From the NCBI RefSeq assembly GCF_003018235.1, contig NZ_CP027437.1: DNA of 64,000 nt; one strand, 5' to 3'. Under the pieces are notes generated by a model. It was given only the letters and a program-made list of their open reading frames with translations. It ran no database searches and was not told the origin of the DNA. Shown one piece after another: positions 1,008 to 64,000 of the stretch. The translations under genes were made by a program, and so were the position numbers. How positions within the stretch are numbered: the first letter of the stretch is position 1; each line of letters opens with the position of its first letter. This DNA is from Escherichia coli. Lineage in GTDB: Bacteria > Pseudomonadota > Gammaproteobacteria > Enterobacterales > Enterobacteriaceae.

Positions 1008-1034
1008 GCACTTCTTCACCCAATCAGGCGCACG

Positions 1035-1080
1035 GGCGGTCCCCTCGCCCCTTCGGGAGAGGGTTAGGGTGAGGGTAAAA
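1035..1080. repeat. G/C-tract imperfect palindrome (cccctcgcccc-ttc-gggagaggg ... gggtgaggg)
   Basis: Read directly from sequence; resembles small GC-rich intergenic palindromes of enterobacteria. Family assignment not possible without a search. Confidence 0.3.
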
Positions 1081-1125
1081 ATCTTGCCCGAATTAATCAG
1101 TAAGTCAGTTTGTCTGCAAACACAG

Positions 1126-1154
1126 GAGGCGCTAACATAGCGCCTCATTTTTTT
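1126..1154 (+). terminator. Intrinsic terminator-like hairpin: perfect 8-bp stem gaggcgct/agcgcctc, loop aacat, followed by T7
   Basis: Seen in sequence; lies downstream of the monooxygenase gene and only about 12 nt upstream of the dusC start codon. Confidence 0.6.
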
Positions 1155-6557: not shown

Positions 6558-6619
6558 CAAGCGTCGCATCAGGCATGGTGCCCCGGATGTCGGATGCGGC
6601 GCGAACGCCTTATCCAGGG
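6558..6619. repeat. REP/BIME palindromic units (right half of the interrupted unit plus a second unit ccggatgtcggatgcggcgcgaacgccttatccagg)
   Basis: Seen in sequence; canonical REP-like GCCGGATGCGGCG...CTTATCC motifs. Confidence 0.6.
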
Positions 6620-7963: not shown

Positions 7964-8136
7964 AAAGTTCTTTTGCGCTGCATTGCTGGCGTAAATGTCA
8001 GCAATGCAGCATTTCCTCACGATTCTCCTTTGACGATCGCACTTTTTGCTCGTTATGATGGCGTCGCTAGCCTCAGTAAATCCTTACTCCGGCGGTGCGC
8101 AACCCGTGCGCGTGAACCACTATCTGAATGCTCATC

Positions 8137-30528: not shown

Positions 30529-30625
30529 AAAAAAACCTGCTGGTGAGGCAGGTTCTTTTATTTACTATTTTCAGGCCTAACACCACAGCCTGTGCAACAT
30601 CGTGTTCCAACGAACGAATTATAAC
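30529..30625 (-). ncRNA. orzO: Candidate Orz-like antitoxin sRNA (copy 1), ending in hairpin acctgcctcaccagcaggt + U7
   Basis: Minus-strand intrinsic terminator at 30529-30552; body contains about 20 nt (complement of gcaacatcgtgttccaacgaacg) able to pair with the leader of the adjacent toxin mRNA (30757-30782). 5' end not determined. Confidence 0.5.
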
Positions 30626-31134: not shown

Positions 31135-31230
31135 AAATAAAAAAACCTGCTGGTGAGGCAGGTTCTTTTATTTACTACAGTGACGCTAACTTGCTGATTG
31201 TGCAACATTTCGTACCAACGAATAAATTAT
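31135..31230 (-). ncRNA. orzP: Candidate Orz-like antitoxin sRNA (copy 2), same terminator as copy 1
   Basis: Terminator at 31135-31164; pairing segment (complement of gcaacatttcgtaccaacgaata) matches the leader of toxin copy 2 (31367-31391) but differs from copy 1. Confidence 0.5.

Positions 31231-62468: not shown

Positions 62469-64000
<1,532 letters not shown>

Follow-up and report, generated by a model that had tools for sequence, protein, structure and literature searches.

What is the short G- and C-rich near-palindrome that lies between a monooxygenase gene and dusC in this Escherichia coli chromosome segment, and does it have a function of its own? The window analysed here is a stretch of 64,000 nucleotides, whose first part (1 to ~2.4 kb) is 99.3-99.4% identical to O157:H7 and related genomes; around the element, 66 bases agree at 100% with many O157 records. 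The element is intergenic, with the stop codon of the monooxygenase gene (1005-1007) on one side and the dusC ATG (1167) on the other. The upstream gene is annotated in RefSeq as 3-hydroxybenzoate 6-monooxygenase and is the final gene of an mhbT-gtdA-FAH-maiA-monooxygenase cluster; the element begins 34 nt past its stop codon. It shares its orientation with the mhb (3-hydroxybenzoate/gentisate) operon and with dusC and, from this arrangement, may be co-transcribed with both.

The letters on which the original prediction was based are present as quoted at 1041-1075 (+), where the sequence reads CCCCTCGCCCC (1041-1051), TTC (1052-1054), GGGAGAGGG (1055-1063), TTA (1064-1066) and GGGTGAGGG (1067-1075). 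The imperfect hairpin is also there: the first two blocks (1042-1050/1055-1063) pair over 9 bp, with one G.A mismatch and a loop of 4 nt. The element had been described as this hairpin followed by ttagggtgaggg, but the latter is an integral third block, which the description missed. With it, the core at 1042-1075 (+) is CCCTCGCCC-CTTC-GGGAGAGGG-TTA-GGGTGAGGG, and it acquires a three-block, triplex-capable architecture together with a G-quadruplex-type motif.

BoxC, the PIT element and the "triplex motif" TMECO of E. coli are one family (Holder et al. 2015, PMC4666352), with the consensus 5'-CCCTCNCCC N3-6 GGGNGAGGG N3 GGGNGAGGG-3' (PMC4666352). A search of the window with this consensus returned one exact match, at 1042-1075 (+), in which all 24 specified bases are fitted, and 0 in 100 shuffles; sub-patterns of the element likewise gave one match each in the window and 0 in 100 dinucleotide-preserving shuffles. 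TMECO copies are type A when their second loop is TTA and type B when it is CCG (PMC4666352). That of the window copy, at 1064-1066, is TTA, hence type A, and the opposition of G1047 and A1058 places the copy in the "mm" subclass. Type A "mm" is the commonest class in K-12, with 13 of the 23 copies (PMC4666352), all listed in Table 1 of that paper. The window copy is near-identical to entries of this table, for instance CCCTCGCCCCTTTGGGGAGAGGGTTAGGGTGAGGGG, and the flanks GCGCAC..CGGTC and GAAAA are common to it and to eight K-12 copies.

Copy number points in the same direction. A 66-nt query found matches by blastn in 5424 of 5426 complete E. coli genomes, at a median of 19 places per genome and at 15 places in each O157 record among the matches listed. 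The element is therefore a dispersed repeat and not a single-copy sequence, an issue that the original prediction had proposed to settle by a genome-wide search. Nearly all of the 95,190 places are chromosomal, and only 67 are on plasmids; an E. coli chromosome has about 15-20 copies. BoxC has been listed at 56 bp and 32 copies (PMC2267715). The BoxC/PIT/TMECO family as a whole has some 20-30 copies per E. coli genome, always intergenic, as is this one between the stop at 1007 and the dusC start at 1167. Within the 64-kb window no further copy was found with sub-patterns allowing up to 3 mismatches, with the full consensus or with a repeat finder.

The element is thus, almost certainly, one copy of the BoxC repeat (PIT, TMECO), of type A with one mismatched layer ("A mm"). 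Its resemblance to small GC-rich intergenic repeats had been recognized from the start and is borne out by the genome counts; the family name (BoxC/PIT/TMECO) had not been given. It is a real but ordinary member of an already described family, without novelty. The opposite reading, a near-palindrome that arose by chance and belongs to no family, would sit well with the unremarkable thermodynamic z-scores given below, but it is refuted by the exact match to 24 specified bases, the family flanks and the median of 19 places per genome, and we accord it practically no credence. A search for more recent functional studies of BoxC/TMECO retrieved only reviews citing Holder et al.

The limits of the unit were drawn from an alignment of ten copies: the window copy, the copy of strain EC42405 and the eight solo K-12 copies at coordinates from Table 1 of PMC4666352. 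Their consensus, gCGCACggaCGGTC ... GAAA, reaches past the triplex core. The conserved 5' flank of the window copy, GCGCACGGGCGGTC (1028..1041, +), includes CGGTC just before the core in 9-10 of 10 copies and GCGCAC further upstream in 5-8 of 10. Block 1, the pyrimidine strand CCCTCGCCC (1042..1050, +), fits CCCTCNCCC of the TMECO consensus and pairs with block 2 with the one G.A mismatch at 1047/1058. Loop 1, CTTC (1051..1054, +), is inside the consensus N3-6; the canonical EC42405 allele of the same locus has CTTTG here, which gives a tenth base pair. Block 2, the purine strand GGGAGAGGG (1055..1063, +), fits GGGNGAGGG and is the centre strand of the proposed triplex, and loop 2, TTA (1064..1066, +), is that of type A as defined in PMC4666352. 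Block 3, the third strand GGGTGAGGG (1067..1075, +), also fits GGGNGAGGG; set antiparallel to block 2 it gives seven C-G*G layers, one T-A*T layer and one mismatched G-A*A layer, and it can alternatively pair with block 1 through G-T/G-U wobble. The 3' flank, TAAAA (1076..1080, +), corresponds to a family consensus GAAAA (G in 9 of 10 copies, then A in 8, 8 and 5 of 10). With these conserved flanks, the full unit of 5' flank, core and 3' flank extends over about 1028-1080, in agreement with the BoxC unit length of 50-56 nt (PMC2267715). Of the span first proposed, 1035-1080, the 3' end was right and the 5' start moves outwards by about 7 nt, to ~1028.

Canonical copies have the form CCCTCGCCCC-TTT-GGGGAGAGGG-TTA-GGGTGAGGGG with ten layers, and EC42405 has exactly such a form between mhbM and dusC. 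In comparison, the window copy lacks one G at the start of block 2 and another at the end of block 3, with T in its 3' flank where canonical copies have the G of the tenth triplet layer. Both missing Gs belong to the same layer in the fold-back geometry, the one adjoining loop 1, and this leaves a nine-layer copy of the composition given above. Read from its sequence, the window copy is a slightly eroded BoxC with nine rather than ten triplet layers; as one event only, the loss of this layer is without statistical weight.

REP sequences and BIMEs were considered as candidates and rejected: direct comparison with REP-like arms in the window revealed no likeness to the GCCGGATGCGGCG...CCTTATCCGGCCTAC-type consensus. 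This agrees with the original prediction, which had seen no match to REP, and the element is indeed unlike the REP copies in the window such as that at 6585-6615.

Could the element act on the mhb operon as RNA, either as a terminator or as a 3' stem-loop shielding the mRNA from exonucleases as some REPs do? Its position 34 nt past the last gene of the operon and its sense orientation would suit such a role, block 1 can find a partner in either of the other two blocks inside a local RNA fold of -29 kcal/mol, and five of the eight solo K-12 copies fetched sit between convergent genes, that is, at 3' ends. An intrinsic terminator was nevertheless rejected, as the BoxC hairpin is followed by TAAAAATC and not by a T-run. 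The terminator scan left it uncalled because it has no T-tract, and called only a separate hairpin at 1126-1146 followed by ATTTTTTT, a run of seven Ts. The fold has a z-score of only -0.8, and the K-12 copy between pstA and pstB is antisense to its operon. Moreover, earlier experiments on PIT elements (Hoyne and Maher, as cited in PMC4666352) found neither promoter nor terminator activity and saw RNA polymerase unaffected; earlier work likewise found conjugation unaffected. Rfam covariance models run on 900-1300 at a permissive E-value gave only four weak matches, with E of at least 0.4 and scores far under the gathering scores; at the gathering threshold, in a search of the whole window, no match fell at the BoxC site. 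We judge a role at the RNA level improbable.

The separate terminator-like hairpin, at 1126-1154 on the dusC strand, consists of GAGGCGCT-AACAT-AGCGCCTC followed by ATTTTTTT and stops 13 nt short of the dusC ATG. After the variable segment described below, it is the first sequence kept in all E. coli, K-12 included. In K-12 the gene upstream of it, yohJ, is divergent, which leaves the hairpin without an evident transcript to terminate; it may act as a leader or attenuator of dusC. A simple scan of 900-1300 for a sigma-70-like promoter found none.

Neither strand and neither parameter set gives the BoxC fold exceptional stability: z is -0.8 (RNA, +) and -0.1 (RNA, -), and -0.8 and -0.7 for DNA folding of 53 nt; the bare 22-nt hairpin has z = -2.0, and the value of -0.8 holds across 53-81 nt of context. 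Thermodynamics alone leaves the site unremarkable and what exceeds chance is the sequence itself. The triplet table of the window copy, with eight canonical layers and one mismatched, is compatible with a triplex, a structure whose triplets ViennaRNA cannot model. In vitro, single-stranded TMECO oligonucleotides form a stable purine-motif triplex, with a Tm of 74 C for type A mm (CD, NMR and melting; PMC4666352), and primer extension shows a polymerase stop in front of the motif (PMC4666352). The published type A mm oligonucleotides differ from the window copy only in loop 1 and in the last base. Double-stranded TMECO DNA stays duplex in vitro, and in vivo DMS footprinting detected no triplex (PMC4666352).

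Blocks 2 and 3 overlap a G-quadruplex-type motif with four G3 runs and 3-nt loops (1055..1075, +), the sole (G3+N1-7)x4 match on either strand of the 64-kb window. The active form, in DNA or in the transcript, might then be a G-quadruplex rather than a triplex: GGGAGAGGGTTAGGGTGAGGG fits the canonical (G3N1-7)x4 pattern, and purine-motif triplexes are impossible in RNA (PMC4666352), so that a structure at the RNA level would be a hairpin or a G-quadruplex. However, Holder et al. weighed this option and their NMR imino spectra of the full oligonucleotide favour the triplex over a three-tetrad G-quadruplex (PMC4666352), the conserved C-rich block 1 would be left unexplained and would compete by base pairing, and one such motif per 64 kb is close to the mononucleotide-shuffle mean of 1.1. 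We regard the G-quadruplex as a poor candidate, marginally less credible even than a role as RNA.

The surroundings of the element vary between strains. K-12 has neither the mhb cluster nor a BoxC between yohJ and dusC, and the homology of island-free genomes with the window restarts at 1127, 51 bp past the BoxC core; the left island junction, from the LysR regulator to yohJ, contains no BoxC. The strain-variable segment that includes BoxC, at the right edge of the mhb/gentisate island, covers 1011..1126, no strand being assigned to it; in a short allele these 116 nt are represented by 18 nt of K-12-type sequence.

The 3' end of the monooxygenase gene is present in 612 genomes, and the allelic forms come from these. 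The O157 form seen in the window is present in 366 genomes with at least 80% coverage. A second, canonical allele, in EC42405, has the full ten-layer BoxC, and a third, in EC1515, has a deletion of 8 nt, GGCGCACG, in the BoxC 5' flank. In a fourth, in O157:H7 strain TR01, K-12-type DNA begins 10 nt past the element. The fifth is the short allele of isolate 362 and NT1W25, where the stop codon is followed directly by the 18 nt of K-12-type sequence in a 61-bp spacer devoid of BoxC. It probably explains, as far as the sequences tell, the gap between two genome counts, 504 and 366. The sixth, in CM2010, belongs to a relocated mhb cluster beside sslE/glc: homology ends at ~1062, inside block 2, and leaves a decayed half-element with its 5' flank kept. 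O145 and O103 strains have the same 163-nt, 91.4% match as CM2010. Finally, the copies of the cluster on plasmid records end in the last 25 nt of the monooxygenase gene, at ~984-1001. On E. coli chromosomes the mhb/gentisate cluster has at least two locations, in addition to plasmids: one between yohJ and dusC, the other (NZ_CP087564.1) beside the glc operon and an sslE pseudogene, where remnants of the CbtA toxin also lie.

There are, then, at least six alleles among island carriers, with breakpoints from inside the element to ~60 bp away. This series suggests that BoxC goes with the 3' end of the mhb cluster, and that the junction around it has been remodelled repeatedly. Such a history would fit the published observation that, across 56 E. 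coli strains, the local sequence of TMECO loci, over the few hundred bp around the element, has changed more than that of control intergenic sites or of random hairpins (PMC4666352). The association seen here is a correlation at one locus, and island edges and 3' intergenic regions vary anyway.

Variable presence also raises the question of mobility. BoxC could be a selfish, MITE-like mobile unit copied by some enzyme, as RAYT transposases copy REPs, and the present copy a neutral passenger. The repeat is a discrete unit of ~55 nt with conserved ends, dispersed through intergenic DNA; the presence of copies varies among strains, and the same three blocks are present more than 100 times in Mitsuaria chitosanitabida and recur in genomes of Methylomirabilota and Contendobacter, often as inverted pairs. 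Filled and empty alleles, however, differ by replacement, of 116 by 18 nt between mhbM and dusC and of 155 by 51 nt between adk and hemH, with neither target-site duplication nor precise 55-nt insertion at either locus, which argues against a simple mechanism of this kind. In addition, plasmids harbour just 67 of the 95,190 places, and Holder et al. found no link of the family to transposons, phages or plasmids, and most copies at fixed loci across strains (PMC4666352). We consider a mobile unit unlikely, if somewhat less so than the alternatives already discussed.

The K-12 copy between adk and hemH is missing in roughly half of the E. coli genomes, including an O157-like strain. In the minus allele a 155-nt segment, comprising BoxC and a terminator-like hairpin, has given way to another hairpin-containing segment of 51 nt right after the adk stop codon. 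In the zntA-tusA spacer of APEC17, a BIME-like REP pair of ~170 nt is inserted ~30 nt upstream of an otherwise intact BoxC.

The distribution outside E. coli was assessed by a scan of representative genomes for the exact three-block pattern, a measure of breadth only, in which the matches listed are dominated by one Mitsuaria genome and include none that is enterobacterial. These matches come from a Methylomirabilota MAG, a Contendobacter MAG, another unclassified MAG and Mitsuaria chitosanitabida (Burkholderiales; more than 100 copies). This breadth agrees with the report of the TMECO motif in "more than 260 genomes" (Holder et al., PMC4666352). One copy of the Contendobacter MAG differs very little from E. 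coli type A mm; among the matches listed, loops and flanks are taxon-specific outside E. coli and inverted pairs are frequent. Mitsuaria copies have a fixed first loop, GCTTGC, and a 3' flank of TCTTCGGG, and in Mitsuaria chitosanitabida and the Methylomirabilota MAG, where the motif is very abundant, copies are often arranged in inverted pairs with a separation of 30-150 nt, a hint of larger composite units.

A more speculative idea, to which we give little weight, is that BoxC is a module recognized in single-stranded form by a dedicated protein, such as a RAYT-like/HUH copying enzyme or a replication or recombination factor. If true, this would account for the retention of the three 9-nt blocks, while loops and flanks are free, across Enterobacteria, Burkholderiales and Methylomirabilota, as well as for the repeated remodelling beside BoxC of island junctions such as that between mhbM and dusC.

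The best explanation of the locus as a whole, and in our judgement quite a probable one, is that it holds a slightly eroded BoxC copy in strain-variable DNA. How such a repeat would act is a more tentative matter: it would be structure-prone and without a dedicated regulatory job, and folding and destabilization of nearby DNA is a possible mode of action, favoured over each of the others but far from assured. When the G-rich + strand is single-stranded, block 1 would pair with block 2 and block 3 would fold back onto the purine strand, giving a purine-motif intrastrand triplex or, alternatively, a hairpin of blocks 1 and 3. The + strand of the window has a GC skew of +0.036, a leading-strand composition (G>C), which would make the parental + strand the lagging-strand template. 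It is also the non-template strand for mhb and dusC transcription, so that the triplex-capable strand may be transiently single-stranded in both processes. Once folded, it could stall polymerases, and stalling could result in slippage, small deletions and illegitimate joins nearby, leaving flanking intergenic DNA unusually variable; BoxC would then travel with the mhb 3' end and mark a zone of repeated remodelling of the island junction. Between adk and hemH, as between mhbM and dusC, what separates BoxC-plus from BoxC-minus alleles is the replacement of an entire intergenic segment from the stop codon onwards; at adk-hemH there are no lesions centred on the element. The pattern of segment replacement would be equally allowed by recombinational exchange of divergent intergenic alleles.

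In practical terms, the proper annotation for the stretch is a BoxC/TMECO repeat; it is no candidate for a new RNA or a regulatory hairpin. With BoxC lying 51 bp inside the right edge of the island, the locus offers a modest illustration of the published claim that such motifs occur in unstable intergenic DNA. The question of what, if anything, the family does dates from the 1990s, and to it the mhbM-dusC copy brings no new answer, only a convenient natural allelic series.

Several other features of the window were recorded. The dusC-yohP spacer (2120-2720), especially its G/C-rich part at ~2215-2400, holds another dispersed repeat, single in the window, with a median of 4 places per E. coli genome by megablast; at least 80% of the stretch is present in only 1999 genomes. 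The 107-aa ORF at 2145-2468 is probably spurious. Two Rfam matches to the OrzO-P antitoxin RNA, at 30529-30604 and 31139-31212 (-), lie within a 608-bp direct duplication and constitute a tandem zorO/orzO-type type I toxin-antitoxin pair. Further Rfam matches are a Peptidase-S11 RNA motif at 8052-8132 (+), ~2 kb downstream of the place of pbpG (near 6.7 kb, from an annotated O157 record), and a TPP riboswitch at 54297-54393 (+). A tandem array with a 9-nt period (AAGCAGAAA / AAGCAGCAA ...) occupies 63741-63944 and would, if coding, specify a Lys/Ala/Glu-rich repeat.

How does the element compare with known systems? Like the REP (PU) sequences and BIMEs, BoxC copies are short, GC-rich, imperfect palindromes, present in many copies, intergenic and often located at the 3' ends of genes. 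There is no sequence similarity between the two (compare GGATGTCGGATGCGGCGCGAACGCCTTATCC at 6585-6615), REPs have two arms where BoxC has three blocks, and REPs have a known mobilizing enzyme family and protein partners whereas none are known for BoxC. With Rho-independent terminators it shares a G/C-rich stem-loop 3' of a gene, but not the T-tract. H-DNA or mirror-repeat triplexes and G-quadruplex motifs resemble it in their purine-rich G tracts, in forming polymerase-stalling non-B structures and in their link to instability. H-DNA, however, is a mirror repeat in supercoiled duplex, while BoxC needs one strand folding back twice, and a G-quadruplex reading leaves out the conserved C block. 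The likeness to the BoxC/PIT/TMECO family itself extends to the consensus, the TTA loop, the "mm" G.A layer, the flanks, the intergenic site, the copy-number range and the strain-variable surroundings. The differences are minor: a first loop of CTTC and a 3' base T, which cost both G strands the layer next to loop 1 and leave nine layers instead of ten. Relative to the 23 K-12 copies of Table 1, the mhbM-dusC copy is an addition, absent from that list because the locus does not exist in K-12.
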